Source: Candidatus Cloacimonadales bacterium
GTDB taxonomy: Bacteria; Cloacimonadota; Cloacimonadia; Cloacimonadales; JAFGVF01
Reading direction: 5' to 3'
Assembly: GCA_963677495.2 (NCBI GenBank)
Contig: CAXXOU010000003.1
Span: forward strand, 477,872-541,871
Length of the DNA: 64,000 nt
Part shown: in pieces, positions 342 through 30,207 of the stretch
How positions within the stretch are numbered: the first letter of the stretch is position 1
Layout: the number at the start of each line of letters is the position of its first letter
Notes under the pieces: generated by a model
The model's database searches: none
What the model was told of the DNA's origin: nothing
The model's input: the letters and a program-made list of their open reading frames with translations, nothing else
Program-made: the position numbers and the translations under genes

Positions 342-1298
342 TTAAATACATGAACTATCTAGTGATCTATATATATTGATAATTTTGGACGCTATAACTG
401 TATCTTTTAAATCTTCTATCATTTCTCTACCATTAGAGCCTTCTTGATCATTGATTAACTCTAATACCGCATCTTTGATGATTGATGAATCATATTTGAC
501 TAACCTGCATCCATTACATTTTGGTAAGATTTCTGGAACATCTCCACAAGGAGTGGATACAACATTTGCATTACAAGCAAGAGACTCCTTAATTACATTT
601 GGTGAGCCTTCGTAGATTGAAGTAAACAAAACTAAATTTGCTGCATTATAGTAATATACTAACTCTTCATTGGGAATGTTTTTGAAAGGGACAATTGTTA
701 CATCTAAACCAGTTTTTGCTAAACTCTCTTTTGTTAAGGAGAAATTTTTCTCTGGTCTTTCCGGATTACCAGGAAAAACTACATAGATTTTATCTGTATC
801 CCATCCTAAGTATTCTCTAGCTGTCTTAGTTGAGATTGGTTTAAATCTTTCGAACGAGACACCGTTTGGGATAACAGAGTAATTATTGTTTTCTTTGTTA
901 AGATGAGAAAGAAGTTCTTTAGATTTAACAATTACATGATCGTAATACCTGCAAAACAGATTGTTGATGGATTTATGTATACTACCAATAATCTTTTGTC
1001 CTGATATCTTATTCCAAAGCAACTCTGAGCCCATCATTGACACTACTAATTTTTCTTTGGTTCTAGCAAAATGAGCAACAATACCTAAATAACCGTAATG
1101 AGCATGTATAATGTCAAATTCATTATCTTTCAGATACTTTCTTAATAATGGAATAGATTTAATATAACCTTTGATTCCACTATGTTTCAATAGATAATAC
1201 TCTACTTCTATTCCTTGCTTCTTCAGAGACTCTCCCTGATTTTTAATTATGGGAGAAAGACCTATTCTAGTACCACTGCTTACAAACAAAACTTTCAT
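342..1298 (-). CDS. GT4 family glycosyltransferase
   Basis: IIHAHYG, VIPNGV and SIYEGSPNVIKESLAC (ExxxxxxxE) GT-B motifs. Confidence 0.88.
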   Translation of the reverse strand: MKVLFVSSGTRIGLSPIIKNQGESLKKQGIEVEYYLLKHSGIKGYIKSIPLLRKYLKDNEFDIIHAHYGYLGIVAHFARTKEKLVVSMMGSELLWNKISGQKIIGSIHKSINNLFCRYYDHVIVKSKELLSHLNKENNNYSVIPNGVSFERFKPISTKTAREYLGWDTDKIYVVFPGNPERPEKNFSLTKESLAKTGLDVTIVPFKNIPNEELVYYYNAANLVLFTSIYEGSPNVIKESLACNANVVSTPCGDVPEILPKCNGCRLVKYDSSIIKDAVLELINDQEGSNGREMIEDLKDTVIASKIINIYRSLDSSCI

Positions 1299-2911
1299 TA
1301 GTGACTTCTCTCTCTCTTAACGAGAATATTGAAAATACATTTAAAGAAATATGTAAAGTCAGTCCACAATGGATGTTTTAACTTCTTAAGTAAATAGCGT
1401 TTCTCTGACTGAACAATTTCCTCAAAACTATGAGGCATATCAGCATAGAATGGCGGTAATAATCCAGGTTTGGTTTTAATTCTCAATTCCTGTACATCTT
1501 CAGGATACAAACTGAAATAATGCTCGCTTAATGCTCTAACCCCAACCAATCCAACTTCTCCTTTAAAGAAGTTTATAAACTGAGGTAACTCATCAATCCA
1601 AAGTTTTCTAAATACTTTACCCCAACTTGTAACTCGTGGATCGTTTGCAAATTTACCTCCCTTCTGAAGGTTGTAAGTTTGAAAGATATATTTTTGAAGA
1701 TATTCTGAATAAGGGTGCATTGTCCTAACTTTATATAGGTATATGATTTTTCCATCTTTACCACGACGTTTTAACTTGATTAAAGGTCCATATGATGGAT
1801 TTATATCAGCACTTGGATGTTTCACCTTACGGGCGACTAAGTATAGTTTTGAGCCGATCTTTTTCTTCTTTATTAATTCAAACCCACAATAATACAATCG
1901 TCCAAGAACTTCTGTTTCTGAAAGTGCTCTGTTTCTACCTTTCGTAAGCGCAAAGTAAAATCCTTTAAGCAACATCATTTTTGGGAAAACTCTTCTGAAC
2001 CAGAAGTCAAAGACATAAATTATACTGCCAATAAAAGGTGTAAACTTCTTCATTAACTGTTTTTTTTGTTCATGGAAGGTTTCAACATTTGCAACAAGAA
2101 CACCATCTGGTTTGATAATCTCGTTCAACTGAATCAAGAATCTGTTTATACGTCTGAAATCGTTAATTCTATGTAGGTTAACAAAGAGTTCTTTTGATTC
2201 CTTCTCAATTACTTCAATGTTATAGAAGGTTTGACTATTTATCACCAAAGATTTCTCTTTGTTGAAAGTAGACAGTTCTAGATAACTATCTAAAAAGTCA
2301 TATAACTCTTGATCATTATTTAAGTAGTTTTGTTTTAAATCCTTCTCAAAAGAGTGACTAACATCATTAGAAAAAGGTGAGTACTTGTTTTCAGGTGAAT
2401 ACTCATCAATAAAAGATTTATCATTTTGAATTGGGTTATATTTTTTACTTTCAATACCAGAAGGTATATTTTCAAGTTTACTTGATTTTGTTATGAATGT
2501 AGTTTTAGCAAAGCTGGGATTATCAAGATAAAATCTGAAAGAGTAATATAGTAAGGTGAATATTATCAATTCTGAACCTAAAGAAAGTACCATTGTACCA
2601 AATACAAGCGATTGAGAGTAGGTGAACCTTTTAAAGAAAAGGATTGCACAAACTATTACTGCAATTGCAAAAACATCATTAACAACTATAGATTTCCAAA
2701 TATCATGGATAGAGTTCTTCTTTCTTATTGAAAATTTCCCCCCCCATAAACCTGTAAGTTGCCAAGTAAATAGGTATCCAAGAAATGGTTTACTATAGTC
2801 TTTTAAAATATTCCTTGTTCCCTTCATATACCACGCAACCAGGGCAAAAGATCCAAAAATCAATAAAGTATCTAAAATAAAGTAACTTACAAACCAGAAT
2901 CTCTTCTTCAT
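1298..2911 (-). CDS. Initiating (priming) polyprenyl-phosphate sugar phosphotransferase with N-terminal TM helices
   Basis: Four hydrophobic N-terminal segments; C-terminal bacterial sugar transferase motifs YKVRTM, DPRVTSWGKVFRKLWIDELPQFIN, LVGVR, KPGL. Confidence 0.88.
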   Translation of the reverse strand: MKKRFWFVSYFILDTLLIFGSFALVAWYMKGTRNILKDYSKPFLGYLFTWQLTGLWGGKFSIRKKNSIHDIWKSIVVNDVFAIAVIVCAILFFKRFTYSQSLVFGTMVLSLGSELIIFTLLYYSFRFYLDNPSFAKTTFITKSSKLENIPSGIESKKYNPIQNDKSFIDEYSPENKYSPFSNDVSHSFEKDLKQNYLNNDQELYDFLDSYLELSTFNKEKSLVINSQTFYNIEVIEKESKELFVNLHRINDFRRINRFLIQLNEIIKPDGVLVANVETFHEQKKQLMKKFTPFIGSIIYVFDFWFRRVFPKMMLLKGFYFALTKGRNRALSETEVLGRLYYCGFELIKKKKIGSKLYLVARKVKHPSADINPSYGPLIKLKRRGKDGKIIYLYKVRTMHPYSEYLQKYIFQTYNLQKGGKFANDPRVTSWGKVFRKLWIDELPQFINFFKGEVGLVGVRALSEHYFSLYPEDVQELRIKTKPGLLPPFYADMPHSFEEIVQSEKRYLLKKLKHPLWTDFTYFFKCIFNILVKRERSH

Positions 2912-3684
2912 AGCTTCTTAAACCTTAAGTATATCATTTTTACAAAATTACGGATTAACCTTTTATAATAGATTTTGTACCAATCAAATGTATTGCTTGC
3001 CCAATGCTCAGGATGGATATTAATCATTATCTTATCTGGTAGAGTCTCATTTTCAAAAGCTTTGATGAGCGAATCTAAACTATCAATATGTATCTGATAG
3101 CTTGTTTCAACTTTATCTCTTCGATTTACAGATTGTTTTCCCCAAGATCTACCAGCATCAGTTAAATAAAATATATCATTGTAATCAAAGTCAAAAAAAG
3201 TTTCACTTGAAATCCCTAAGTCTCTATAATCATGGCTTTCCCAGATTTCTTTACTATCATATGGGCTAGTAGGTCTACCATGCATAGCAATAGATTTAAC
3301 TGGATACCCAATATTCTTAAATCTTGTTATATCATTCCTAAATGATTGATAAGCAATATCAATATCACCCTTGCTATCACACAAATTCTCATAATGATAA
3401 CCAATCTCATGCCCTAGAGAACTAATATTATTTATACATTTTTCATCAAAGCTTACAGGCTTTGTTCTGAAATAATATGTTGCCTTACATAGCATATTGC
3501 TTTCTATTTCTGCCATAATATATGATCGACTTGGCTTTCTGTCTACATCATGTCTTAAGATTAATACTTTAGGGTCAGTTTCTGTTTTAAACTCAGTTAC
3601 ACCGACACATTTATAACCTTTAGAAATAGCCGTTTCAAGAAGAAGTCTATACTTTTGAAAAGAGAAATCTTTATTCATTAACAA
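2908..3684 (-). CDS. Polysaccharide deacetylase-like (NodB-fold) protein
   Basis: ILRHDVD, ATYYF, GHEIGYH, AMHG and IHPEHW motifs. Confidence 0.7.
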   Translation of the reverse strand: MLMNKDFSFQKYRLLLETAISKGYKCVGVTEFKTETDPKVLILRHDVDRKPSRSYIMAEIESNMLCKATYYFRTKPVSFDEKCINNISSLGHEIGYHYENLCDSKGDIDIAYQSFRNDITRFKNIGYPVKSIAMHGRPTSPYDSKEIWESHDYRDLGISSETFFDFDYNDIFYLTDAGRSWGKQSVNRRDKVETSYQIHIDSLDSLIKAFENETLPDKIMINIHPEHWASNTFDWYKIYYKRLIRNFVKMIYLRFKKL

Positions 3685-4747
3685 ACCTATCTTGGAAATC
3701 GGGTTTAACTGTCATCACTTTGAAGCTTTCAGGATAGTTTTCAATGAACCACTCTGTAAAAGAAGTTACATCTATCTTGTCGTTCATGAACTGCCTTGCT
3801 TTACTCTTATATGTATCGAAAAGATTATCTTTTGCTAGTACTGATGAAAGTTTATTCATAACACCTTCCGAGCTAGTGAAATTATAACATAAGTCATATT
3901 TCTCAAGATCCTGACAATATGATCTTTCAAGAGTATTAATATAGAATGAAGCCGTTCCAAGAACTCCGGCCTCCATAGCCATTGTAGCACCTTCTCCTAC
4001 AAATACTTCTGCAAAATATAGTGCATCATGCATCATTTGTGGAGGGATTTTTATCATGAAAGGTTTAAACTTATCTGGTAGTTCTGTTTCTCCAGAGATG
4101 AATACTTTATATCCTTCATCAAGAAGCTTGTTCAACACATCTTCTTTCAATTCACTTGTCATACCACTCTGACCTTCATCATGAGTTGCATTCCAAGAAA
4201 CAAATCTTAGGATCGAATATCTTGTGCCTTCAGTAATACCTAAGTACTTGAATATATTTTTATTAGGTTTAAAATAGTTGGGACTTAGATAAGCTATCTC
4301 ATGGTGTCCTCGATACCTAATCTGTTTTTTGGGATATTCAAACGGAAAAACATCAGAAGTCAAAATTGCCTTCGTAAATGGTAAGTAAAGTCTAACTTGT
4401 TCCCAGTTACCGGTGTCTTCAAAGGCAATATGGGGTTTTCTAAGTATAGCTGCCACCCATGCTGCATATGGAGATCCATGACTCATAAACAAGTCTGCTT
4501 TAAATCTTCTTGCTTTTCTTAGCATTTGATATGTAAACCTGAACAATCCCTTAATCTTGTCCATTTTAGTAGCTCTATGCTCGCCAAAAGATGTGAAATC
4601 AAAACCTGCGGCAGTTAGAAGTTCAATCTCGAACTCTTTTTGTCTTGCTGTAAACAAAACCTTATGCCCTTTATTTTGCATATTTAAAGCAAAATTTCTA
4701 AACAAGTGCACATGACCGGGATGCCCAATATCAATTAGTATTCTCAT
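3671..4747 (-). CDS. DUF354-like GT-B fold protein
   Basis: MRILIDIGHPGHVHLFR start, FEDT, LRFVSWNATHD, GEGATMAMEAGVLG. Confidence 0.8.
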   Translation of the reverse strand: MRILIDIGHPGHVHLFRNFALNMQNKGHKVLFTARQKEFEIELLTAAGFDFTSFGEHRATKMDKIKGLFRFTYQMLRKARRFKADLFMSHGSPYAAWVAAILRKPHIAFEDTGNWEQVRLYLPFTKAILTSDVFPFEYPKKQIRYRGHHEIAYLSPNYFKPNKNIFKYLGITEGTRYSILRFVSWNATHDEGQSGMTSELKEDVLNKLLDEGYKVFISGETELPDKFKPFMIKIPPQMMHDALYFAEVFVGEGATMAMEAGVLGTASFYINTLERSYCQDLEKYDLCYNFTSSEGVMNKLSSVLAKDNLFDTYKSKARQFMNDKIDVTSFTEWFIENYPESFKVMTVKPDFQDRFVNE

Positions 4748-5541
4748 TTTCTCGTCGCTATGATTGTTTTACCAGCATAAACTTGATCTTTAAGGTTAAC
4801 AAGTATCTTGAAATCATCTGGAATTATCAAGTCTACTTGTGAGCCAAACTTAATCATACCAACATATTCTCCTCGTTTAACAGAGTCACCAACATCCTTA
4901 TAAGAAACAATTCTTCTTACTCTTTTTGATGCAATTTGAACCATCCCAAAAAGGAGTCCGTCATCTCTTTTAAACACCATAGTGTTTCTTTCGTTTTCAA
5001 CTAGAGCTTCACCAAGCTTCAGTGAAAGAAATTTACCATCAAAATGTTTGTTTAGAACTATTTCACCACTTACTGGTGCGCAATTATTATGCACATCGTA
5101 AGGTGTCATATTGATTCCCACTAACCAACATGGTTGCTTTAATATATCTGTTTTAGTCAGTTCCTCAAGCTTAGCTATTGTAGAATTCTTAATTGATATA
5201 GGAACTTTGTTAGGCTCAATTCTTTTAATATAGATCACATTTCCATCTGCTGCAGATATTACATCATCCAATCCTGCATCCGTTACTCTTTTTGGTTTTC
5301 GGAAGAATCTAATCATTAAATCCAAGAAAACAAGCATGGGAATTGAAAAAACTGTCGCTAGAATACTTAACCAAGAAAAGCTACTAACACATATAAATCC
5401 TAAAATGAGTGAAGCAAACTGAACAAATAAAATATCTTTAACAATTAATGAGTAGCTAACATTCGTTTTCTTGTGAAGAAAAGCGTATATTAGAAAAGGA
5501 ACGACTAGTGCAATTGCTGCATTTATTGAATATAATATCAT
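4744..5541 (-). CDS. psd: Phosphatidylserine decarboxylase family (pyruvoyl-dependent) proenzyme with N-terminal TM segments
   Basis: FFRKPKR, ISAADG, DVHNNCAPVSG, ENERN, QIAS..VRRI and the self-cleavage motif KFGSQVD. The family is clear; the substrate is uncertain in this context. Confidence 0.8.
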   Translation of the reverse strand: MILYSINAAIALVVPFLIYAFLHKKTNVSYSLIVKDILFVQFASLILGFICVSSFSWLSILATVFSIPMLVFLDLMIRFFRKPKRVTDAGLDDVISAADGNVIYIKRIEPNKVPISIKNSTIAKLEELTKTDILKQPCWLVGINMTPYDVHNNCAPVSGEIVLNKHFDGKFLSLKLGEALVENERNTMVFKRDDGLLFGMVQIASKRVRRIVSYKDVGDSVKRGEYVGMIKFGSQVDLIIPDDFKILVNLKDQVYAGKTIIATRK

Positions 5542-5542
5542 T

Positions 5543-6706
5543 TTAACCTCTTTTATACTTCAAGTATGGAGTTAGTATAAGATACATTATAGCTGGAAGG
5601 GGGTCTTTTAGGTCCCAAACTGCATACTCTTTCTTTTTACTTAAGCTTGTTAAATATTCTTTTAGGGATATGCGGGATTTTTTACCTTTCATAAGTTCTT
5701 TAAACACAATATATGTATCGATAACTCTTTCAATCCAAGCTAAACCTTCGATTTTATTGTGTACTTCAACTAGACTTCTTTCATTGTTAAGATATTTGAT
5801 TAATGATTCAATAGGACTAACATTTACAACATTTGCCATTGAATGCCATTTCCAAGTACGTGGATTAATTTCCAAGAGCTTATATTCACCGGTTATCTCA
5901 TCATACATAAATTCAGTTTCTGAAACACCAAAATAGTCGATTTCTTCCAAGAGTTTGGTTGCTAAATCATCAATCTCTTTATTTACTACAGAAACCGCAT
6001 AAGTTGTAGCTCTACCAAATGTAAACGGCCTTTGTCTAGATCTATTAGCAACAAAACTACACCAAGATTTTCCATTGGCAAAAAAAGAACCATATGAATA
6101 AAGATTCTTTGGGCCTCCTGGAAGAAACTCTTGAATAATAATCTCACTAGAAGGTACAGCTTTAATTCCAACTTCATAGTTGCTGATTAGTTCTTCTCCA
6201 TTGTTACATAATAAGGCCTTTTTACCTGTTTTCTTTAGAAATGTAGACATTACTGCAGGTTTAATGATAACTGGATATCTTATTTGTGTCGCAATATACA
6301 GTAACTCATCCATAGTCTCAGGATAGTACGATTTAGGGTAAGGTATGCCAAGTTCATGAGCTTTTTTATAGGTTTTTACCTTGTCAAAACAGAGCATTGT
6401 CGTCTCGTGCGATGGAAGATTAATATGATACCCAGCTAACACATCACGATTATCACTTATCAACTTTACCAATGTATCGTTGGTTGGTATGATAAGTGTA
6501 TCGAGTGAACATCTTCGTTTCACTAACTGTTTTATAAGCTCTTTGTGATCATAATATCTGACAAATATATCAAGATTTTTAGAAAATTTAGCAATACTTA
6601 ATGCATAATCATTAAAAAGAACTGTTTTCAGTCCTAATCGCTTGCAAATTCTAATAACACCAAGCCCCTGTACATGATCACCTAAAATGAAAACTCTCTT
6701 AATCAA
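5543..6706 (-). CDS. ATP-grasp carboxylate-amine ligase (D-aspartate-ligase-like)
   Basis: PTND, DKVKTY..A..LGIPYP, YPVIIKP, IIQEFLPG, EFMYD...YKLLEINPR. Probable TTG start at 6706 after GAGGGAG (ORF track starts at 6733). Confidence 0.82.
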   Translation of the reverse strand: MIKRVFILGDHVQGLGVIRICKRLGLKTVLFNDYALSIAKFSKNLDIFVRYYDHKELIKQLVKRRCSLDTLIIPTNDTLVKLISDNRDVLAGYHINLPSHETTMLCFDKVKTYKKAHELGIPYPKSYYPETMDELLYIATQIRYPVIIKPAVMSTFLKKTGKKALLCNNGEELISNYEVGIKAVPSSEIIIQEFLPGGPKNLYSYGSFFANGKSWCSFVANRSRQRPFTFGRATTYAVSVVNKEIDDLATKLLEEIDYFGVSETEFMYDEITGEYKLLEINPRTWKWHSMANVVNVSPIESLIKYLNNERSLVEVHNKIEGLAWIERVIDTYIVFKELMKGKKSRISLKEYLTSLSKKKEYAVWDLKDPLPAIMYLILTPYLKYKRG

Positions 6707-8135
6707 TTGTCTCCCTCGGATAAGCTGATTCAACTTCGGAAAATTGAATCAGATCATAGTTTACTAATCCAACATCATTCCCACCAGGTTCATCAGTTTC
6801 GTCCCAAATAAGCTCTGCTATTTCAAGCAAATCTGTTGTACCCCAATAATTCCTATTAGCGTCGATAATATTTGGTCTCGAATGATACGCTAAATTAACT
6901 GCAAGAGTGCAATCAAGGAAATTGTTCTTCGTCAATCCTACATTTATATCTGAGAAACTTATAGCTTTATAGACATTATTGAATGTTGAAAAAATCACTT
7001 CAGGACTACATCTATCAGAACTCACACATGCACCATCAATATTTTCGAAATAGCAATACTGAATAACTGAATCAGCAGAAATCAGAGTATCATGGGATTT
7101 TTTATGGTGAATTCCACTTTGGCAATTGAAAAAAACGCAATCAGTTATTTGAGCATCACTTGAATCCCATATCTTAACTGCAGGTTCTTCAATATCAGAA
7201 AAATAGCAATGCGAAATTATTGGCGAGTTAAGTAAATTACTTGATCCCCACACTCCAATTCCAGAAAAACTATTAACGAAACTACTATTGTTTATATAAG
7301 TATACTCAGTAGTAATATCCAAGCAAGAATCAGTACAATTATAGAATAACACATTATTGAAAGAGCAGTCATTTGATTTTACTTCAATACCAGATATACT
7401 ATTTGAGAAGACAGCTGAATCTACTATCAATCTTCCAGTTTCAACAACTTCTATTCGTCTCCAATAGGAAGAAGTATCTTTTTCTAGGAATAAAACTGGG
7501 TTCTCATTGTTGCCTTGAATATCAAGTATTCCAGCAACAGTTATTTTAGAATTATCCATCTCGATTAAACAATTATCGAAAACTGTAACACTTTGTTCAA
7601 GGAATAAATCGCTTGATACAAGAATATGTTGATTTGGTCCAAGAGTTAGATCTTCGCTTACTATCCCAGAAAGTTCGATACTCTCTGCCATATCAATCAA
7701 TACATTCGTATCAGTTTTCACTTCAATCGTCTTAATATTACATCCATATCCTTCAGAAAAGTAGTATAACAAATAGTTTCCAGGCACTACAGCATCAAAC
7801 TCAAAATTTCTATTTGTTACAATTTCTTGCAACCAATCTGTTGAGTTTCGATAGTTAATTGTATAATCTAAAGGAATTGAAGAACCTACATACTGGAAAT
7901 CATCATTTGATTCAACTGCGCTTGTAGTACTCTGGAACAACTTAACAGTAATTACATCAGACTCATTAGCATTATTTATAAGGTTGATTGACCCACTTAT
8001 TTTAAATTTAATTTTTGGATCTGTGCCATTCTTACAACTACATAAAGTATTCAAACACACAACACCTAATAAAACATATAATATTATTAAGGAAATTTTA
8101 CGTGTTTTTGACTGTCTCTGCCGATTCATATACAT
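6699..8135 (-). CDS. Predicted lipoprotein with right-handed beta-helix repeats
   Basis: Basic N-terminus, hydrophobic stretch and lipobox-like LCSC; repeated I..C.F.N turns; IDANRNYWGT motif common at the end of beta-helices. Confidence 0.65.
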   Translation of the reverse strand: MYMNRQRQSKTRKISLIILYVLLGVVCLNTLCSCKNGTDPKIKFKISGSINLINNANESDVITVKLFQSTTSAVESNDDFQYVGSSIPLDYTINYRNSTDWLQEIVTNRNFEFDAVVPGNYLLYYFSEGYGCNIKTIEVKTDTNVLIDMAESIELSGIVSEDLTLGPNQHILVSSDLFLEQSVTVFDNCLIEMDNSKITVAGILDIQGNNENPVLFLEKDTSSYWRRIEVVETGRLIVDSAVFSNSISGIEVKSNDCSFNNVLFYNCTDSCLDITTEYTYINNSSFVNSFSGIGVWGSSNLLNSPIISHCYFSDIEEPAVKIWDSSDAQITDCVFFNCQSGIHHKKSHDTLISADSVIQYCYFENIDGACVSSDRCSPEVIFSTFNNVYKAISFSDINVGLTKNNFLDCTLAVNLAYHSRPNIIDANRNYWGTTDLLEIAELIWDETDEPGGNDVGLVNYDLIQFSEVESAYPRETID

Positions 8136-14630: not shown

Positions 14631-15818
14631 CTAATCCTTAAATTCTATCATAGAAATTATCTCGTTCTCATACAACTGCATTCGTCTCATCATCTCTTCA
14701 TATGAATCTGCTTGAACAATAATGAAACCACTCCTGGTCGCACTATGGGTAATATCACTAACTCTGTCTCCTTCTTTAATATAGAAATAAGTCAAGATCA
14801 ATCCTTCATATGTTATATCAGATATTCTCGGTAGGCACTTTACTTCTTTACCTACAGGGAGCTCTAAATATTTAACTAGACAATTATGGTCTTTAGTAGG
14901 AGTCACAAGTGGGTCATTTCCAATGCTAACTTCAACAAGAGCTTTATCCATATTTACTCCACATGAGTACTCTGGCAAATACGATGAAACAAAGTCACCG
15001 CCCAATCTTGCTGCCATTTCAATAACTTTAGGACCCTCATTTGTATACATAATTTCACAACATCCACCACAGTTATCCAATCCCAATGATTTGACTGTTT
15101 TTTCCATTAGCCTCTGAATTTCTTCCAATTGTTCTTCTGTTAAAATGGCAGGTTGAATTTGAGCTAGTTCTACTGTCCGAGGATAAGGTGTAATTAGTTT
15201 ACTCGTACATTGAACTATTGAAACATTACCTTTCCAGATTATCATCTCAATATTATATTCAGTTCCTTCCATAAACTCTTCAAGAATAACGCTATTATCT
15301 GAAGACCACATTGCAGATTCATCATATAATTCAGCAATCTGAGATCTATTATCTACTTTGAATACGCCCCGACTTGAAAAGGCATCAGCTGGTTTAATTA
15401 TTGCCGGGAAACTGATCTCCTTCCCTAGGGCATCATCAATAGAATTTGTAAGATATCCGTTTGCGCAAGGAACACCATGTTCGATAAACTTCTTTTTCAT
15501 TTGAAACTTATTCCTAGAACATTCGACAGCTATCTGAGTCGGGAAAATATAGCCCATCTCATTCGCTAGTTTTGCCATCAATATTAATGGGTTTTCCATT
15601 TGAGCAGTTACTATACCATCAATATTATACTTTTGAGCAATCTCTCTTGTTCTTATGTAATCTTTTGGCTCAACTACTTCGAAAACTGCAGCAAACTCCT
15701 TCGCATAAGCATTTGGGCTTGGGTCTATTACGACAGAGCGATACCCAAGTTCATTTACAGCCTGGATTAGGTGTAACTGATTTAATCCTGCTCCAAAAAC
15801 AAGAATAGATTTGGTCAT
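14631..15818 (-). CDS. ATP-grasp amino-acid ligase-like protein
   Basis: NKFQMKK, FPAIIKPAD.FSSRGV, LEEFMEG.E, IEMAARLGGD. Start at MTKSILV (15818) after GGAG; ORF track starts at 15857. Confidence 0.85.
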   Translation of the reverse strand: MTKSILVFGAGLNQLHLIQAVNELGYRSVVIDPSPNAYAKEFAAVFEVVEPKDYIRTREIAQKYNIDGIVTAQMENPLILMAKLANEMGYIFPTQIAVECSRNKFQMKKKFIEHGVPCANGYLTNSIDDALGKEISFPAIIKPADAFSSRGVFKVDNRSQIAELYDESAMWSSDNSVILEEFMEGTEYNIEMIIWKGNVSIVQCTSKLITPYPRTVELAQIQPAILTEEQLEEIQRLMEKTVKSLGLDNCGGCCEIMYTNEGPKVIEMAARLGGDFVSSYLPEYSCGVNMDKALVEVSIGNDPLVTPTKDHNCLVKYLELPVGKEVKCLPRISDITYEGLILTYFYIKEGDRVSDITHSATRSGFIIVQADSYEEMMRRMQLYENEIISMIEFKD

Positions 15819-15819
15819 A

Positions 15820-17001
15820 TTATTCTCCAAAAACCTTTTTAACAGCATTAACCACATGCTGCCTTTCTTCCTGAGTTAATGAAGGGTAAATTGGTAATCT
15901 TAATAATGAACCAAAGAATTCCATTGAACCAGGAAACTCTTCATCAGTTCCAAGTTTTTGATAATATCTATTACGATGAAGTGGAGTATAATGAACGTTA
16001 ACTAAAATATTTTCCGCTCTCAGTGCATCTAAAACCCAATACTTATCCTCATTTGGTACAAGTACATAGTATATATGCCAGTTAGGTGTGCCATTTTTAG
16101 TTGGACATGGTAGTTTTAATCCTTCGATTCCATGTAATTCTTTCGTATAAAAGTCGGCAATCGCAGCTCTTTCTCTTAGAATAAAGTCAATCTTGTTTAG
16201 TTGAGTAACACCCATAGCTCCAAGAATGTTGGACTGCACATAAGAATTACCTATATCTACATATTCGTAATATCCTCTAGACACATTATCAGTTAAGAAA
16301 GAATACTTATCAGTACCCTTCTCACGTAATATTTTAATTTTCTCGGCTAACTCATCATCATCAGTTACAATAGCACCACCTTCTCCGGTAGTAATATTTT
16401 TAGTCCCATGAAAACTGAAAGTGCTTACATGTCCCTGGCAACCTGTTTTCTTTCCTTTATACTCAGCACCAATAGATTGTGCCGTATCATGTACTACAAA
16501 AAGGTTATATTTTTCTGCAAGCTTCATTATCGGGTCCATATCTGCAGGATTCCCCGCATAATCGACAGGCATAATTGCTACTGTTTTATCTGTGATATAT
16601 GACTCTAATTTATCAATATCAAAGTTACCATTTTCTGGATTTACATCTGCAAGAATTATCTTTAAATCATTGTACAATGGTCCCAGTGCAGTAGAAGTAT
16701 ATGTAAAGTCTGGAACTATTACTTCGCTACCTTTAGGGAAATGTTTTAACTTAAAAGCTAACTCCAAACCACCGGTGCATGAATTTAAGAAGAATACATG
16801 CTTCACACCAAGATATTCAGATAGTTTCTTTTCGAACTCTCTACAGGCAGGACCATCACCACTAACAAAGGTAGTTTTGGTTGTCTCGTAAACCGCCTGC
16901 ATATCATCTTCTAAAATATATGGTTTATGGATTATTACCGGATCTGCTGAAACCGGGCTACCACCATTTATTGCTAAACTTGGATTATTTCTGTTTATCA
17001 T
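15820..17001 (-). CDS. DegT/DnrJ/EryC1/StrS PLP sugar aminotransferase (WecE/RffA-like)
   Basis: NSCTGGLE, VVHDTAQ, FSFHGTKNITTGEGG (PLP Lys), REKGTD, HYTPLH, LLRLP. Confidence 0.9.
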   Translation of the reverse strand: MINRNNPSLAINGGSPVSADPVIIHKPYILEDDMQAVYETTKTTFVSGDGPACREFEKKLSEYLGVKHVFFLNSCTGGLELAFKLKHFPKGSEVIVPDFTYTSTALGPLYNDLKIILADVNPENGNFDIDKLESYITDKTVAIMPVDYAGNPADMDPIMKLAEKYNLFVVHDTAQSIGAEYKGKKTGCQGHVSTFSFHGTKNITTGEGGAIVTDDDELAEKIKILREKGTDKYSFLTDNVSRGYYEYVDIGNSYVQSNILGAMGVTQLNKIDFILRERAAIADFYTKELHGIEGLKLPCPTKNGTPNWHIYYVLVPNEDKYWVLDALRAENILVNVHYTPLHRNRYYQKLGTDEEFPGSMEFFGSLLRLPIYPSLTQEERQHVVNAVKKVFGE

Positions 17002-17011
17002 GTCTTCTCCT

Positions 17012-17941
17012 TTACATGTTCTCTAGATACCAGTTAATGGTATCTTCAACACCCTTCTCAAAATCTATTGATGGTCTCCAGTTCATTAACTCTTCACCCT
17101 TTGTTCCATCTACAGTTTTAAAAGCAGCACCGTCCGGTTTAGAAGTATCTAATGTTAGTTTCCCTTCATACCCAGCAAGTTTCTTTATGAGTTCTGCAGT
17201 TTCAATTATAGAGTATCCTTTTGCAACACCAATGTTTACGATATCTGAGGTTTCCGGTAGGTCAATAGCACGTAACATTGACTCTGCACCATCATCAACG
17301 TGCAACCATTCTCTTACAGGTTTTCCTGTTCCCCAAACGATAACTTCTGGAAGATTTTCTCTCTTTGCTTTGACGATTTTCATTATTAAAGCTCCTAAGG
17401 CGTGAGAACGTTCCTCTTCAAAATGATCCATAGGACCATACATATTTGAAAGGATTATATTAATTACATTTAGTCCATGTTGCTTGTTGTATGCCCATGA
17501 ACCCATCCAGAAAGCTTTTCTTACAAATCCGTAAATCTGTACAGACTCGTGCATTGGACCATCCCAAACTTCCTCTTCTTTGAATAGGGTTGCTTTAGCA
17601 GGATATACACAGTTTGAGATTGGATTAACAATCCTAGACACTCTACATTCTTTTGCTGCTTCAAGGATATTAACATTCATCTCGAGGTTGTTCTTGAACA
17701 GGTCTGCAGGATATTTATATCCAAATTGAATACCACCAACAAATGAGGCACAATTCAAAATATTGTCTGGGGCAACTTCTTTAAACAGTTTCAATGTTTG
17801 TTCATAATTGCGCAAATCAACTCCCATACTCAATGAAGTTGCAGTGTGTTTAATTCCTTTGCTTTCAAGAAGCATACACAGTCTTTTGCCTAAAAAACCA
17901 GTAGCACCAAGTACCAATATTTTTTTACCATCAAGATTCAT
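17012..17941 (-). CDS. fcl: GDP-L-fucose synthase-like epimerase/reductase
   Basis: GATGFLG, VGGI, CVYP, NMYGP.D.F..ERSH, VWGTGKPVREWLHVDD, KPDG; adjacent to gmd. Confidence 0.8.
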   Translation of the reverse strand: MNLDGKKILVLGATGFLGKRLCMLLESKGIKHTATSLSMGVDLRNYEQTLKLFKEVAPDNILNCASFVGGIQFGYKYPADLFKNNLEMNVNILEAAKECRVSRIVNPISNCVYPAKATLFKEEEVWDGPMHESVQIYGFVRKAFWMGSWAYNKQHGLNVINIILSNMYGPMDHFEEERSHALGALIMKIVKAKRENLPEVIVWGTGKPVREWLHVDDGAESMLRAIDLPETSDIVNIGVAKGYSIIETAELIKKLAGYEGKLTLDTSKPDGAAFKTVDGTKGEELMNWRPSIDFEKGVEDTINWYLENM

Positions 17942-17949
17942 TGAAACTC

Positions 17950-19104
17950 CTATAAAATATCTTCAATTTGTGGGGAAATGTCGAATCCACCATTTTTTAA
18001 ATATGTGTCTTGCTTAATTAATTTAACATCATTATCAACCATCTCATTCACAAGCATTTCAAGATTATACTTTGGTTGCCATCCTAATTTTTTTCTTGCT
18101 TTACTGGAATCTCCAATAAGTAATTCAACTTCTGTTGGACGGAAGTAGTACGGTTCAACCTCAACAATTGTGTTACCAACTGCTAATTCTTTAGGAAGTT
18201 CTCCTATCTTATTATTAAATAGATCATTATTAATGCTTTCAATAACACCAACCTCTTCAAGCCCTTCACCCTTAAAACTTAGATTTATGCCTACTCTTGC
18301 AAAAGCCATTTTCACAAAGTCTCTAACAGTTGTGGTTACTCCGGTTGAAATCACGAAATCTTCCGGTTTCTCCTGTTGAAGAATTAGATACATTGCTTCA
18401 ACATAGTCTTTTGCATGACCCCAGTCTCTTTTTGCATTCAGATTACCTAAGTAAAGTTTATGTTGAATTCCAAGCACTATGTTAGCAACTGCTCTAGTGA
18501 TTTTTCTTGTGACAAAAGTTTCTCCTCTGAGTGGAGACTCATGATTGAATAAAATGCCATTACAGGCAAACATGTTGTAAGCTTCACGATAGTTAACAGT
18601 TATCCAGTATGCGTACATCTTTGCGCACCCATATGGAGAACGTGGGTAAAATGGAGTTGTTTCTGTTTGAGGAATCTCTTGAACTTTACCATATAACTCA
18701 CTGGTTGAAGCCTGGTAAACTCGAGTCTTATTTTCTAAGCCTAGTATTCTAACAGCTTCAAGAATCCTTAAAGTTCCAATACCATCTGCATTTGCAGTAT
18801 ATTCCGGAGTATCAAACGAAACTTTAACATGCGACATCGCGGCAAGATTATAAATCTCATCCGGTTGGATCTCTTGAATCAATCTAATTAAATTTGTTGA
18901 GTCAGTTAAGTCACAGTAGTAATACATGAACTGATTTTGCTCTTCTCTGTTTACTTTAAATAGATGGTCAATCCTTTGAGTATTAAACAATGATGCTCTT
19001 CTCTTTAAACCATGAACAACATATCCTTTCTTTAGAAGTAACTCTGCTAAATAAGCACCATCTTGCCCCGTAATCCCTGTTATAATTGCGTGTTTTTTAT
19101 TCAT
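17950..19104 (-). CDS. gmd: GDP-mannose 4,6-dehydratase
   Basis: [70 protein letters not shown]. Likely start MNKKH at 19104 after GAGGA. Confidence 0.97.
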
Positions 19105-19156
19105 TTTAGTCCTCATCACTAATTGCTCTATCTTAACAATCTTTCAGTAGTTTAAT

Positions 19157-20162: not shown

Positions 20163-21500
20163 TTATACCTTTACTCTATCTATTAAAATTTTATGCTTGC
20201 CGTTTTTGCTAACCTTAATTTTCGTCACAACCTCTAGTTGCCATTCTATGTACCCTTCAAGTTGAGCTTTGAGGTTTTCATTAATTAAATTTATATCATT
20301 TGTGGATAGTGTTGATGAAGTTGCAAGTCTAACGATTAATAAATCTTCGGAAACTCTTTCAACTTGATATGCCGATATTGTCTGAAAATCCTTTATTAAC
20401 TTACTTCCAAAAAAACTTGGAATAACGAGTCTACCACCATTCTTTAATTGAAGTACATCACTTGATCTGCCAAGTACAGATTCAAAAGAACTGAGTGGGT
20501 ATCTCGCACACTTCTCTGTGGTTGGAATAATTAAATCACCTATTTGGTATTTAATTAAGGGCATTGAAAAGTTATCTAAGTCTGTTATAATTGCATGCTT
20601 ATATTCTTGAGTACTATCCTTATAGTCTAAGAATACATGAGTATCCATTACATGATAGTTACCACAAACTGGGCATTCATACCCAAGACCCAAGATTTCA
20701 GTACTACCATAACAGTCATAGACTGGACCTAAATATTTTTCTATCAAATCTCTTTGATAGGATTGAAGATTCTCTGCAGTTGTGAAAACATATTGAATCC
20801 TATATCCTATCTTTAAATTATTATCTCGCATAAAAACACATAAATAGTATATTGCATTTGTATATCCTGTAACACAAAAGAATCTCTTAGATTTCAGCAA
20901 GCCATAAAGCTCACTGAAAGACTTTATATCAGACAAACTATACGCTGGGAAAAGCGTCTCATTATACAGGTAGTTTTTTATCTTTTGTTTGAATGTCTTT
21001 GATCTAGCTACATTGATTGGATTTCCCCAAATTTTCAAAGTCCTCTTCCCTGGCTTCCAACCTGATAGCCTTTGACCAGTTTCTGCAATCATTGATCCAT
21101 AATCCCGTGAGTACTGACTAGCTAATAAACGGACTGGAACTCCTGTTGATCCACCAGATGCAACAAGTTTAGCGTTATATTCTTTAATCTTTGATGACTT
21201 TAGTGACTCGAAATTGTTTTGTAAATCATCTCGACTTAAGATCGGGATCATATCCATATCTCTTAACTCATTAAATTCATAGGGATTAAATCCTGCATCA
21301 TCAAATCTAGACTTATAAAAGGGTACTGTTTCATAAGCATGAATCAATAATCTTTTTAGCTTTTTTAGTTGTACTTTTCTAATTTGGAGCTTATCTAAAT
21401 CTAGAATACCTCTAATCTCTTTAAGGACTTCAAACTTACTTCCCCCTATCACAAGATCAGATATTTTCAAAAAACTAGTTCTTAAAATTTGCCTAAACAA
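20163..21500 (-). CDS. CapK / phenylacetate-CoA ligase-like adenylate-forming enzyme
   Basis: HAYETVPFY, SGGSTGVP, YGSTE, MPLIKYQIGD, GRSSD, NGKHK. Confidence 0.85.
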   Translation of the reverse strand: MFRQILRTSFLKISDLVIGGSKFEVLKEIRGILDLDKLQIRKVQLKKLKRLLIHAYETVPFYKSRFDDAGFNPYEFNELRDMDMIPILSRDDLQNNFESLKSSKIKEYNAKLVASGGSTGVPVRLLASQYSRDYGSMIAETGQRLSGWKPGKRTLKIWGNPINVARSKTFKQKIKNYLYNETLFPAYSLSDIKSFSELYGLLKSKRFFCVTGYTNAIYYLCVFMRDNNLKIGYRIQYVFTTAENLQSYQRDLIEKYLGPVYDCYGSTEILGLGYECPVCGNYHVMDTHVFLDYKDSTQEYKHAIITDLDNFSMPLIKYQIGDLIIPTTEKCARYPLSSFESVLGRSSDVLQLKNGGRLVIPSFFGSKLIKDFQTISAYQVERVSEDLLIVRLATSSTLSTNDINLINENLKAQLEGYIEWQLEVVTKIKVSKNGKHKILIDRVKV

Positions 21501-21509
21501 TGTACACCT

Positions 21510-22229
21510 TTATACTAAGTCTTTAATTATTGTGTGATAACTATATGTTTTTGTAAAAACGAATCCACGCCTAATATGAAACATTAATGACTGAATATTA
21601 TTTACCTGAGTACCAGCTTTTAGCAATTCAATGTTATTATCAAGTAAGTATTTCTCAACACTATTAAGTAATTTTGAAGCAATTCCTTTTCCAGCTAATG
21701 CAGGATCTACAGCAAGTAACTCACTAACAGAATAACCATTTGATAGACTGTTTATAAGAAAAGCACAATGTTGCTTTTCTTTATAATAACAAATGATCTT
21801 ATCTTTTCTGTTAAAGGAGTTTTTTACCCACTCAGCATAAACTTGTCTATTCTTTGGATATAATTCCTTTACATTGTAAAACCTAGAAAGACTGAATGCG
21901 TTTTCAGCAAGCTCCACTAATCCATCTACTTTTGGCTGCGACGCTTTAACTGGTAGTTCTTGTTGGGTTAGTTTATCAATGGATAATTTTTTCTCTAGCT
22001 CCAAATTTATATCAGTATAGAATGCCCCAATACTAGCAAGAAGACGATTATTTACTGGATTATTATTTATGTTAACAAAAGTAATAAATTTATACTTTGA
22101 AACTAAGTCTTTAACTTCCATTATCTCTTTCTCAGTTAACTGACTATTAAGTAGTACTTTTGCTGAAGAGATTCCATAGAAATTGGTTTCCCACTCCAAT
22201 TCAATGATCGAAAACTTGTTATCTTTCAT
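21510..22229 (-). CDS. GNAT N-acetyltransferase (WecD-like)
   Basis: LEWETNFYG, SRF, LAVDPALAGKGIAS (acetyl-CoA motif A), GTQVNN, GF. Confidence 0.8.
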   Translation of the reverse strand: MKDNKFSIIELEWETNFYGISSAKVLLNSQLTEKEIMEVKDLVSKYKFITFVNINNNPVNNRLLASIGAFYTDINLELEKKLSIDKLTQQELPVKASQPKVDGLVELAENAFSLSRFYNVKELYPKNRQVYAEWVKNSFNRKDKIICYYKEKQHCAFLINSLSNGYSVSELLAVDPALAGKGIASKLLNSVEKYLLDNNIELLKAGTQVNNIQSLMFHIRRGFVFTKTYSYHTIIKDLV

Positions 22230-22238
22230 AGTTTTATC

Positions 22239-22922
22239 CTAAAACCCCAGACTACTTATCTTTCTAATCTGCATGAATGATTCTGCTGCAGATATTCCAA
22301 CATCTAAACCATTTTTCTGAGCAAGTAATCTAATTGCTTTTATAGATCTCGGATGTGGAAATTCAGGTATTTCTGACTGATGAGTAGACTGATAAGCTTC
22401 TAATGCTTCAAGCTTTTGCTCTAACTCTGAAGAAATGTCAATGAACAAGTTAGGATAAAACATCATTTTAGATAGCTTTGGAGCCCATTCTGTTGATGAT
22501 GGTGTTTCATAACAAATTAGTTCTCTAACAGAATTTGATGGTGTTGGGCGAGCGATTATCAGAGTTGCATTAAATACAACTCTATGATCCTGATTAACAT
22601 CTCCACCATGATGTGTATAAATAATTGTCGGGTTATAGCCCTCTATCAACTTCTCGATTCTCTGAACAACTTCAATTAATGGGTATCCGTCTAATCTTTG
22701 GTCATCGAAATCACCAAACATAACCTTAGTAACACCTAGAATTTTACACGCATTTCGAGCTGCTTGCTTTTGTTGAGCTTTATATTCATGCCTTGCTCCA
22801 ACACCATCTGTAAGAATCAGAACAGTGACCGTATCTCCTTTCTTAACGTGTTTTATTATTGTCCCACCTAAACCCAATGACTCATCATCAGGATGAGCTG
22901 CTAACACCAATACTCGTTCCAT
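22239..22922 (-). CDS. PIG-L/LmbE family N-deacetylase
   Basis: AAHPDDESLG, YTHHGGDVNQDH, YETPSSTEW, HPRS, AESF. Confidence 0.9.
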   Translation of the reverse strand: MERVLVLAAHPDDESLGLGGTIIKHVKKGDTVTVLILTDGVGARHEYKAQQKQAARNACKILGVTKVMFGDFDDQRLDGYPLIEVVQRIEKLIEGYNPTIIYTHHGGDVNQDHRVVFNATLIIARPTPSNSVRELICYETPSSTEWAPKLSKMMFYPNLFIDISSELEQKLEALEAYQSTHQSEIPEFPHPRSIKAIRLLAQKNGLDVGISAAESFMQIRKISSLGF

Positions 22923-22933
22923 GAATTCTCCAA

Positions 22934-25078: not shown

Positions 25079-25093
25079 AAATCACCTCTATTG

Positions 25094-25867
25094 TTATATT
25101 TCATAATCAGATTTTCTTAATACTTTTATTGCCCCAACCCTACCTTTGTTGAATAGTAAATCTATAAAAGACATACCGGCAATAAAATCACCTTGTAATT
25201 GGGCATAAGCAGGATGCGTAAACTTTTGAAATACTAGTTTTACCCCATTTGATTTAAACAAATCTCTATCTAAATAATCTTTTCCGCTTACACCTGCAAC
25301 AAAAACATCAGCTTTAGCCACTTTGCACATATTTAAGACTAACTCAGAGGAAACTCCATCAATTTTGTAACCAGCTTCAATAAGTTTTGATGTCCTAAAA
25401 ACAGGTACTTTTATATCAAACATTTCGAAAGCATATTGAATTATTGCCAGATTCAAGTCTAATAAATGTGAATACTCCTTATTAAATATTAATTCGAGAC
25501 TGGGAAAAACATCTTTGAAGTAAGGTGCTTTTTTGTAGGAAGCCTTAATAGTATCTAGAAGCCTTTTAATTTTATCAGGATCATGTATTAGCACATTACG
25601 CATCAAATGAATCTCTCTTTTATTTTTTATTGGAATTGATAACCATTTCCACCCATTGTCAGAGTTAAATCTTATCTTGTTTCGATTTTCAAAATACTCT
25701 TTCTCAAACTGGACATGATCCAATAAAAAATATACATCCCCCATTGTTGCCTTAGAAATGAAACCTAACCAAGGGAGGAATTCAGCCTGATGAGAAACTA
25801 ATATCCTTTCACCAGCATCAATTCTCCTTGAGTCACTACTTTTTACGATATTGTCTAAATCCAACAT
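25094..25867 (-). CDS. WbqC-like protein
   Basis: HQAEFLPWLGF, LDHVQF, NRNKI, WLSIP, YKKAPYF, SGKDYLD, YAQL..FIAGMSFIDLLFN. Confidence 0.88.
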   Translation of the reverse strand: MLDLDNIVKSSDSRRIDAGERILVSHQAEFLPWLGFISKATMGDVYFLLDHVQFEKEYFENRNKIRFNSDNGWKWLSIPIKNKREIHLMRNVLIHDPDKIKRLLDTIKASYKKAPYFKDVFPSLELIFNKEYSHLLDLNLAIIQYAFEMFDIKVPVFRTSKLIEAGYKIDGVSSELVLNMCKVAKADVFVAGVSGKDYLDRDLFKSNGVKLVFQKFTHPAYAQLQGDFIAGMSFIDLLFNKGRVGAIKVLRKSDYEI

Positions 25868-30149: not shown

Positions 30150-30167
30150 TGCTCTCTCCAATTTAAA

Positions 30168-30207
30168 CACAGCTTCGCCCCGTGACTTACAGGCTTCTGC
30201 ATCACTT
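30168..30207 (-). promoter_or_regulatory. JUMPStart/ops-like leader element of the polysaccharide operon
   Basis: Minus strand reads AAGTGATGCAGAAGCCTGTAAGTCACGGGGCGAAGCTGTG, just upstream of the RBS of the first gene. It resembles the enterobacterial JUMPStart 3' half (AAGCCAGGGGCGGTAGCGTG). Confidence 0.5.

Follow-up and report, generated by a model that had tools for sequence, protein, structure and literature searches.

A phosphatidylserine decarboxylase homologue paired with an ATP-grasp ligase in a Cloacimonadales polysaccharide locus, a candidate glycan-tailoring module

Introduction

Phosphatidylserine decarboxylase (PSD) is a textbook enzyme of phospholipid metabolism. Here we describe a PSD homologue whose gene directly follows that of an ATP-grasp ligase in a polysaccharide locus of Candidatus Cloacimonadales bacterium (GenBank assembly GCA_963677495.2, contig CAXXOU010000003.1, positions 477,872–541,871); the whole 64,000-nucleotide stretch analysed is called the window below. 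Among the described systems that resemble this pair, the D-aspartate ligase Aslfm/AslA is an ATP-grasp enzyme that joins the beta-carboxyl of Asp to an amine of a large peptidoglycan cross-bridge precursor, and we know of no decarboxylase that partners Aslfm. In the capsule pathway of Campylobacter jejuni, the supply line includes Cj1436, a pyridoxal-phosphate (PLP) decarboxylase. The ligase of that pathway, Cj1438C, adopts an ATP-grasp fold of the TupA-like type and ligates ethanolamine phosphate or serinol phosphate to glucuronic acid (GlcA), and the phosphatase Cj1435 belongs to the same pathway (PMC11800379).

The PSD reaction has been described for Escherichia coli Psd, in which the pyruvoyl group forms a Schiff base with the substrate amine, His-144 holds the departing carboxyl, and Tyr-137 and Ser-166 hold the phosphate (PMC7952604). 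A PSD-family enzyme of Aspergillus oryzae, Ao-ADC1, is an arginine decarboxylase and takes the free amino acid as its substrate (PMC12904898). A search of the full-text literature, with subscription-only papers outside its scope, found no published description of an ATP-grasp/PSD-like module. The comparisons reported here make it very probable that the pair is a glycan-tailoring module of some kind and does not serve phospholipid metabolism.

Results

The ligase/decarboxylase pair is conserved across polysaccharide loci

A scan of one genome per species yielded 263 relatives, from which 80 loci were kept (L018–L097), mostly from Bacteroidota and some from Cloacimonadota. Cultured carriers include Nafulsella turpanensis ZLM-10 (L036) and Saccharicrinis sp. 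FJH62 (L046). In tblastn searches with the window proteins, the ATP-grasp gene was found directly upstream of the PSD-like gene and on the same strand in 76 of the 80 loci; the four remaining loci had less than 300 bp of upstream DNA, and thus the pair was present in 76/76 loci where it could be assessed. When the 1050 open reading frames (ORFs) of these loci were clustered without bias, the PSD-like cluster was represented in 80 loci and the ATP-grasp cluster in 76, followed by DUF354 (65) and p258 (51), the two genes that come next in the window, and by an unnamed 600-aa protein (36), GT1 (35) and GT4-like (32) proteins. All 88 genes of the ATP-grasp cluster were on the same strand as the PSD-like gene. 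Similarly, each of the 47 long loci (at least 17 kb) carried the ATP-grasp gene, 43 carried DUF354, 39 carried p258 and 41 any CE4-like gene; UDP-sugar dehydrogenase, AsnB-like and DegT genes were found in 10, 10 and 6 of them, respectively, and a Bac_transf homologue lay no more than 10 kb away in 15.

The two activities also occur as natural fusions. P0200 and P0211, both of about 695 aa, carry PSD-like and ATP-grasp domains in one protein, and the ATP-grasp part of P0200 aligned with the window ATP-grasp over its whole length (391 columns, 27% identity, E 1e-47). In other PSD-like proteins the fusion partner is a formyltransferase (P0142), a methyltransferase (P0220) or, as a weak match, a GNAT domain (P0246). 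A metagenome scan seeded with the P0142 formyltransferase fusion found no relative, and one seeded with the PSD-like/ATP-grasp fusions recovered 80 soil-type loci (L112–L191; median guanine-cytosine (GC) content 0.64). Among the metagenome loci, all 27 that reached 9 kb or more carried the pair, while DUF354 was found in 1/27 and p258 in 0/27 of them. The neighbouring genes included GT4, DegT (13/80 loci), Wzx, Bac_transf and Wzz-kinase genes, as well as a Lys/Orn-N-monooxygenase-like flavoenzyme in 20/80 loci and FemAB-like GNATs in 11, which may N-hydroxylate or further acylate the proposed amine product. An LPG_synthase_TM (MprF-type) gene was found in 4/80.

Since DUF354 and p258 are nearly absent from the metagenome loci while the pair is constant, these results indicated that the ligase/decarboxylase pair is the invariant core in polysaccharide loci, and that DUF354 and p258 belong to the version of the module seen in the genome loci. 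An earlier reading of the window, made from its sequence only (the sequence-only reading), had named conservation of the ATP-grasp linkage and co-occurrence with DUF354 in polysaccharide loci as points to examine. The linkage is conserved in both locus sets and in the natural fusions, and DUF354 is the usual companion in the long genome loci.

The unnamed protein of roughly 600 aa matches no Pfam family, and its gene (e.g., L022:3725–6786) lies upstream of the PSD-like gene at a distance of about 3.4 kb; in the loci inspected, another member of this ATP-grasp family, a second paralogue, stands just before it. The gene for the 600-aa protein is absent from the window.

The PSD-like protein retains the catalytic residues of its superfamily

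The sequence-only reading had described a pyruvoyl-type PSD homologue with an intact FGS motif that starts one nucleotide after the ATP-grasp stop, and both the coordinates and the PF02666 match bear this out. In detail, a single nucleotide separates the ATP-grasp stop codon TAA (5545–5543) from the PSD-like ATG at 5541, and AAGAGG stands ahead of this start codon. The PF02666 match reached 147.1 bits against a cut-off of 22 and covered residues 72–262 and profile positions 1–198 (Pfam scan). About three N-terminal hydrophobic helices (residues 1–80), to which the hydropathy peaks are confined, are followed by the catalytic domain (81–265).

Residues F232-G233-S234, D99 and H151 were invariant in 37/37 aligned relatives, and so were L22, K25 and D36 within the N-terminal helices; S173-L174-K175 is invariant in the cassette type, as we call the PSD-like proteins of these loci. 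A profile alignment to E. coli Psd equated D99 with D90, H151 with H144, N144 with Y137 and S173 with S166, while C154 of the window protein takes the place of E. coli H147, where the short housekeeping PSDs likewise have no His. A phmmer search with the window protein gave no match among the PDB sequences. The family profile reached E. coli Psd there weakly (E 0.01), and its matches to the L-Trp decarboxylase chains 8zia and 8x4q were marginal (E 0.03–0.045). Judged by its score, its FGS site and its Asp/His residues, the window protein is a member of the PF02666 superfamily.

The partner is an ATP-grasp protein with a generic modelled fold

The ATP-grasp ORF spans 5543–6733 and would encode 396 aa if translation began at the TTG at 6733. 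The TTG at 6706 is the likelier start because GAGGGAG lies upstream of it and the resulting 387-aa form occurs in the protein collection. The AlphaFold2 (AF2) model of the ligase has a predicted local distance difference test (pLDDT) score of 89.3 and shows a generic fold of the biotin-carboxylase/carbamoyl-phosphate synthetase (CPS)/PurK kind; Foldseek with this model returned biotin-carboxylase, CPS and PurK matches only, with no clue to the substrate. Homologues are named "D-aspartate ligase" (JGI) or "carboxylate--amine ligase" (NCBI). The sequence-only reading had compared the pair with the C. jejuni pathway that includes Cj1438. A Pfam scan gave no match of the window ligase to the TupA-like ATP-grasp family at E ≤0.01, and in this respect the ligase is not of the Cj1438 type. 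A complex of the ATP-grasp protein with PSD residues 78–265 was predicted with a score of 0.00, which speaks neither for nor against binding.

The genome lacks a recognisable phosphatidylserine supply

The host genome (coded G000; order Cloacimonadales; 3.4 Mb, 99.5% complete) has one PF02666 match, the window gene. Its single CDP-alcohol phosphatidyltransferase is pgsA (TIGR00560, 142 bits vs. a cut-off of 109; pssA model, 29.5 vs. 107), and its single PLD protein is cardiolipin synthase (506 bits vs. 290; E. coli-type PssA model, 19 vs. 314). Since the only candidates of both kinds are thus assigned to other functions, the genome appears to hold no recognisable source of phosphatidylserine (PS). 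In family profile searches pssA was found neither in the window, from which the sequence-only reading had already reported it missing, nor in the 99.5%-complete genome; the separate pssA–psd pair that the same reading had suggested seeking elsewhere in the genome was looked for and is absent. A genome search with PF03034 (base-exchange PS synthase) came back empty, but its controls were equally empty, which makes it uninformative. The sequence-only reading had counted a sole psd against its idea, and of its three counter-indications this is the only one borne out; in a genome without a PS synthase, the status of the window gene as the sole psd argues for a glycan role.

The window protein scored below the cut-offs of all 15 NCBIfam PSD models listed, with 173.2 vs. 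225, 165.5 vs. 183 and 165.6 vs. 230 bits on the PSD equivalogs (PRK05305.x, TIGR00164). The psd and pssA tables of 41 Cloacimonadales genomes were read against each other. A long PSD (310–360-aa frames, 167–221 bits) was present in 17/41 genomes, 15 of which had pssA, while the cassette-type PSD (132–148 bits) was present in three (G000, G001 and G022, with completeness of 98–99.5%), none of which had pssA. Within the family of the window genome, 10 of the 11 other genomes had no PSD, the exception being the cassette gene of G001, and none of the 11 had pssA. Several further families of Cloacimonadales were also without both psd and pssA. Probably, these Cloacimonadales, that is, G000 and its relatives, make no phosphatidylethanolamine (PE) by the usual route.

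Bacteroidota genomes that carry the cassette offered a further comparison. In 4/4 of them a second psd of 218–220 aa was found elsewhere in the genome, with about 32% identity to the window protein, and it adjoined cdsA in two of the four and a CDP-alcohol transferase gene in one. Because the host has no PS synthase, 10 of the 11 family genomes have no psd, and the cassette proteins form a separate clade (see below), the window PSD homologue is, on this comparative evidence, not the housekeeping enzyme.

Cassette-type proteins group apart from housekeeping PSDs

Homologues of about 265 aa with 47–55% identity to the window protein are numerous in metagenome-assembled genomes and isolates of Bacteroidota, and a search of a library clustered at 50% identity gave 3679 relatives at E ≤1e-3 and 89 at E ≤1e-30. 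In an alignment of three PSD types, the cassette type reads FGSQVD at the position where short housekeeping PSDs read FGSRVD and long-type PSDs FGGST. The cassette type also has the SLK signature where short housekeeping PSDs have (V/A)A, an insert of about 20 residues at 108–131, and one more N-terminal helix.

A FastTree tree with SH-like supports was built from 222 rows, comprising 77 cassette, 4 housekeeping and 9 long-type sequences and 132 library representatives of 190–300 aa, shorter and longer ones being excluded. A "GSQ" group of 181 rows (support 87) took in all 77 cassette rows. The 4 housekeeping rows belonged to a separate group of 24 rows, most of them with the "GSR" motif (support 94), and the long-type rows formed their own group (support 100). 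Although the supports of 87 and 94 are not decisive, the cassette clade stands apart from the cdsA/pssA-linked PSDs, in agreement with what the sequence-only reading had led one to look for. The window protein and L018, from the same genus, nested among Bacteroidales rows (support 96), which hints at a transfer of the cassette gene from Bacteroidota. GC content was 0.30–0.365 in the polysaccharide locus (window 1–30000) vs. 0.356–0.391 in 32000–64000; this low GC content and the nesting among Bacteroidales would both fit a horizontally acquired locus.

DUF354 and p258 usually accompany the pair in genome loci

The AF2 model of the DUF354 protein (pLDDT 92.9) has a GT-B fold. With VIA-align, its top 32 PDB entries were all UDP-HexNAc 2-epimerases (Z 27.1–23.2), including the WbpI type and NeuC, while GT-B glycosyltransferases reached a Z of at most 21.9; Foldseek alone returned epimerases and glycosyltransferases intermixed. 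A Pfam scan gave no sequence-family match to 2-epimerases, and a profile search of the PDB sequences gave nothing usable. The DUF354 protein is therefore described here as 2-epimerase-like by its modelled fold only.

In p258, the invariant residues are R44-H45-D46-x-D48, H92...H97, H135 and H224. Its profile matched PgdA, a peptidoglycan GlcNAc deacetylase (2c1g), weakly (E 1e-4) over the first two motifs. The protein is without a hydrophobic segment, and we read it as a putative cytoplasmic NodB-like hydrolase.

The pair lies within a single-strand polysaccharide locus

The placement of the pair among glycosyltransferase genes, noted in the sequence-only reading, was confirmed: it sits in a same-strand polysaccharide run (Table 1), flanked by Wzy-like and DUF354/Bac_transf genes whose reading frames overlap or abut. 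The UDP-GlcA epimerase-like gene that had been placed in the same operon is not there; the sugar-nucleotide gene that adjoins Gmd is GDP-L-fucose-synthase-like, and the DUF354 protein, which resembles 2-epimerases by fold, is the only 2-epimerase-like one. No UDP-sugar 6-dehydrogenase is encoded in the window, the two of the genome being on another contig. A homologue of the NosD-like protein was found in only 1/80 related loci.

Table 1. Genes and regions of the window considered in this study
Feature	Position	Strand	Length	Remarks
Polysaccharide locus	1–33 kb	(-)		Every gene on (-); named genes include GT1, GT2 and GT4 glycosyltransferases, Bac_transf, Wzy-like, Wzx, DegT, Gmd and deacetylases
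GT4-like gene	342–1298	(-)		Downstream of the Bac_transf gene
Bac_transf	1298–2911	(-)		Polyprenyl-phosphate sugar-phosphate transferase, initiating enzyme; PF02397 E 7.9e-22, TIGR03025-like; context, not module core
p258	2908–3684	(-)	258 aa	CE4/NodB-like hydrolase, candidate de-N-acetylase; no Pfam match at E ≤0.01
DUF354 protein	3671–4747	(-)	358 aa	PF04007 54.3 bits vs. cut-off 22; overlaps the PSD-like gene by 4 nt
PSD-like protein	4744–5541	(-)	265 aa	PSD-family pyruvoyl-type decarboxylase; PF02666 PS_Dcarbxylase E 6.6e-43
ATP-grasp ligase	5543–6706	(-)	387 aa	CPSase_L_D2 E 1.5e-12, ATP-grasp_3 E 5e-7, ATP-grasp (Pfam)
NosD-like beta-helix protein	6699–8135	(-)		Lipoprotein-like N-terminus (…LCSC…); between the Wzy-like and ATP-grasp genes
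Second ATP-grasp gene	14631–15857	(-)		Unrelated to the first; L-amino-acid-ligase type; ATP-grasp_4, LAL_C2
GDP-L-fucose-synthase-like gene	17012–17941	(-)		Adjoins a bona fide Gmd (578 bits vs. cut-off 415)
SDR/aminotransferase fusion	22934–25078	(-)	714 aa	SDR epimerase/dehydratase domain and PseC/ArnB-like aminotransferase
L-2-hydroxyglutarate-oxidase-like FAD enzyme	29046–30170	(-)		273 bits vs. cut-off 299; edge of the polysaccharide locus, beside GNAT and kdsB

Other genes of the locus point to further sugar chemistry. The second ATP-grasp gene is neighboured by a DegT aminotransferase gene (15820–17001) and by Gmd with the Fcl-like gene (17012–19119), and its product may use an amino acid to N-acylate a GDP-4-amino-6-deoxyhexose. 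The SDR domain of the 714-aa fusion has weak similarity to ArnA-C and UDP-xylose synthase, and WbqC-like, PIG-L deacetylase, GNAT and PaaK/CapK-like adenylating genes follow (20163–25867); as a set, these genes have the look of a separate amino-sugar line within the same locus.

Discussion

A ligation-first route is favoured

In the route that we propose, the ATP-grasp enzyme would act at the cytoplasmic face of the membrane and spend ATP on coupling the side chain of an amino acid to a sugar in a polyprenyl-linked repeat unit. The PSD-like enzyme, held by its three-helix anchor, would process itself at G233/S234 to generate the pyruvoyl group, which would form a Schiff base with the still-free alpha-amine of the attached amino acid; the alpha-carboxyl would then be removed and an amine-ended substituent would remain. 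Attachment through the alpha-amine is not envisaged, since decarboxylases of the pyruvoyl kind need this amine to be free.

That ligation precedes decarboxylation is rather likely, and this order is favoured because the membrane anchor implies a lipid-linked substrate and the amine-capping fusions imply a product with a terminal amine. Signs of a membrane-bound substrate are the three N-terminal hydrophobic helices with their invariant L22, K25 and D36, while the formyltransferase, methyltransferase and GNAT fusions, together with the Lys/Orn-N-monooxygenase-like enzyme of the metagenome loci, would point to an amine product. A sugar amine appears to fit better than a uronate as the acceptor, given the CE4-like gene in 41/47 vs. 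UDP-sugar dehydrogenase in 10/47 long loci; it is preferred because of this conserved CE4-like gene and the D-aspartate-ligase-like naming of the ATP-grasp homologues.

In the favoured version, CE4-like p258 would uncover a sugar amine, to which the ligase would add Asp through its beta-carboxyl or Glu through its gamma-carboxyl, and decarboxylation would yield a beta-alanyl or 4-aminobutyryl amide. The 2-acetamido sugar to be modified is probably supplied or transferred by the DUF354 protein. This version is plausible but tentative, its substrate, step order and product all being inferred. Decidedly less likely is a variant with a sugar carboxylate as the acceptor for the side chain of Ser, Lys or Orn, from which an ethanolamine-type or diamine-type group would result. 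Conversion of a glycan-linked phosphoserine to a phosphoethanolamine substituent, though conceivable, was considered and set aside, as the ATP-grasp enzyme would have no role in it.

Several points weigh against the favoured version. The choice of amino acid and of acceptor is guessed from the gene context, and the "D-aspartate ligase" label of the putative ligase is an automatic name from one source, while the predicted ATP-grasp fold gives only generic matches. The deacetylase step is not universal, as p258 and DUF354 occur in 0/27 and 1/27 metagenome loci. The phosphate-binding Ser166 of E. coli Psd is kept as S173, so that a phospho-ester substrate is possible (PMC7952604), and the genome encodes two UDP-sugar dehydrogenases outside the window. 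As some members of the PSD family take free amino acids as substrates, decarboxylation followed by ligation would also be possible.

Alternatives differ in how well they accord with the loci

Of the alternatives, the one that survives best is this reversed order, although we regard it as unlikely. The decarboxylase would act on an amino acid (Ser, Asp or another), either free or phosphorylated, and the ATP-grasp enzyme would join the resulting small amine to a carboxylate of the glycan, the order used by Campylobacter. L-Trp decarboxylase (8zia, 8x4q) and Ao-ADC1 (PMC12904898) take free amino acids, and an ATP-grasp domain amidates GlcA with ethanolamine phosphate or serinol phosphate in C. 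jejuni HS:2 (PMC11800379). Fusion and adjacency of the two genes are compatible with either order, and UDP-sugar dehydrogenase or AsnB-like genes occur in 20/47 long loci. However, a three-helix anchor with invariant charged residues would be pointless for a soluble substrate, and the fused formyl-, methyl- and acetyl-transferases would block the same amine on which the ligase depends; further, UDP-sugar dehydrogenase is missing from 37/47 long loci and the window ligase is not of the TupA type.

It is improbable that the pair acts on another membrane lipid or lipid-linked carrier, such as an aminoacylated glycolipid or a lipid head group, and that its polysaccharide setting reflects gene shuffling. 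The ancestral substrate of the PSD family is a lipid, the PSD-like enzyme is membrane-anchored, and the MprF-type gene of four metagenome loci would suit such a target. Against this, the pair neighbours glycosyltransferase, Wzx, Wzy, Bac_transf and chain-length genes in both locus sets, and its overlapping or abutting frames in the window tie it to Wzy-like and DUF354/Bac_transf genes.

The specific chemistry of the sequence-only reading, in which Ser or Asp would be linked by its alpha-amine to a uronic acid and decarboxylated to an ethanolamide or beta-alanine-type group, is very improbable. Its glycan-tailoring ligase/decarboxylase pair stands, the gene pair and the polysaccharide setting being real, and uronamides of this kind occur in C. 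jejuni (PMC11800379). The uronate/alpha-amine part does not, as an N-acylated amino acid has no free amine for the Schiff base (PMC7952604). Neither a UDP-GlcA epimerase nor a dehydrogenase is encoded in the window, and a uronic-acid route is not conserved, the CE4-like deacetylase being about four times as frequent as UDP-sugar dehydrogenase in the long loci.

An ordinary housekeeping PSD that came to lie in a polysaccharide locus by chance can be dismissed as highly improbable: the window gene is the sole PF02666 gene of its genome, has intact catalytic motifs and has short-type PSD/archaetidylserine decarboxylase (Asd) models as its nearest, but neither type of PS synthase (pssA or the E. 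coli-type PLD enzyme) was found in the genome, its family genomes are all without pssA and nearly all without PSD, it stays under every NCBIfam PSD cut-off, it belongs to a clade apart from the cdsA/pssA-linked psd genes, and the Bacteroidota carriers retain a separate housekeeping psd.

Implications for annotation and surface glycans

A large sister clade of PSD thus appears to have been recruited for sugar tailoring. If so, automatic "phosphatidylserine decarboxylase" labels in polysaccharide loci would be wrong, and likewise the inferences on PE synthesis derived from them; in the present lineage, which is without pssA, the label would falsely predict PE. What the window contributes is a natural control, since its host genome is nearly complete, has the cassette PSD as its one member of the family and encodes no PS synthase.

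Possibly, and we suggest it with much the same reserve as the beta-alanyl or 4-aminobutyryl version, there is a widespread undescribed route in which an ATP-grasp enzyme attaches the side chain of Asp or Glu to a lipid-linked amino sugar and a recruited PSD paralogue trims the residue to a beta-alanyl or 4-aminobutyryl group. Such a route would be a new way of putting amine groups on capsules and O-antigens and would give surface polysaccharides with free or later capped primary amines, groups on which charge, recognition by phages and the immune system, and zwitterionic behaviour depend. The gene pair would then be a new genetic marker for zwitterionic glycans in Bacteroidota (including gut and rumen Bacteroidales), Cloacimonadota and many soil bacteria.

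Comparison with known systems

The short-type PSD (archaetidylserine decarboxylase) found beside cdsA/pssA in Bacteroidota shares with the window protein PF02666, the membrane-anchored architecture, the ADG...DVH...FGS motifs and the non-His residue at the E. coli H147 position. It differs in being cdsA/pssA-linked, whereas the window type is ATP-grasp-linked and occurs in genomes without pssA. L-Trp decarboxylase (8zia, 8x4q) and Ao-ADC1 (PMC12904898) resemble it as cases of the PSD fold recruited to substrates other than PS, but they act on free amino acids and are not known to have an ATP-grasp partner or a glycan context.

On the ligase side, the likeness to D-aspartate ligase is one of chemistry: after that reaction the alpha-amino acid end is still free, as a pyruvoyl decarboxylase would require, while the acceptor here would be a sugar amine and not the epsilon-amine of Lys as in Aslfm. 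With the HS:2 glucuronamide pathway of C. jejuni (PMC11800379), the pair would share an ATP-grasp enzyme that decorates a surface sugar with a small amine or amino alcohol, as well as the involvement of a decarboxylase. The two differ in that the window ligase is of the CPSase_L_D2/ATP-grasp_3 kind, the decarboxylase is a membrane-bound pyruvoyl enzyme instead of a PLP enzyme, uronic acid is not conserved across the loci, and the order of the steps is probably reversed, so that the amino acid would be joined to the glycan before it is decarboxylated.

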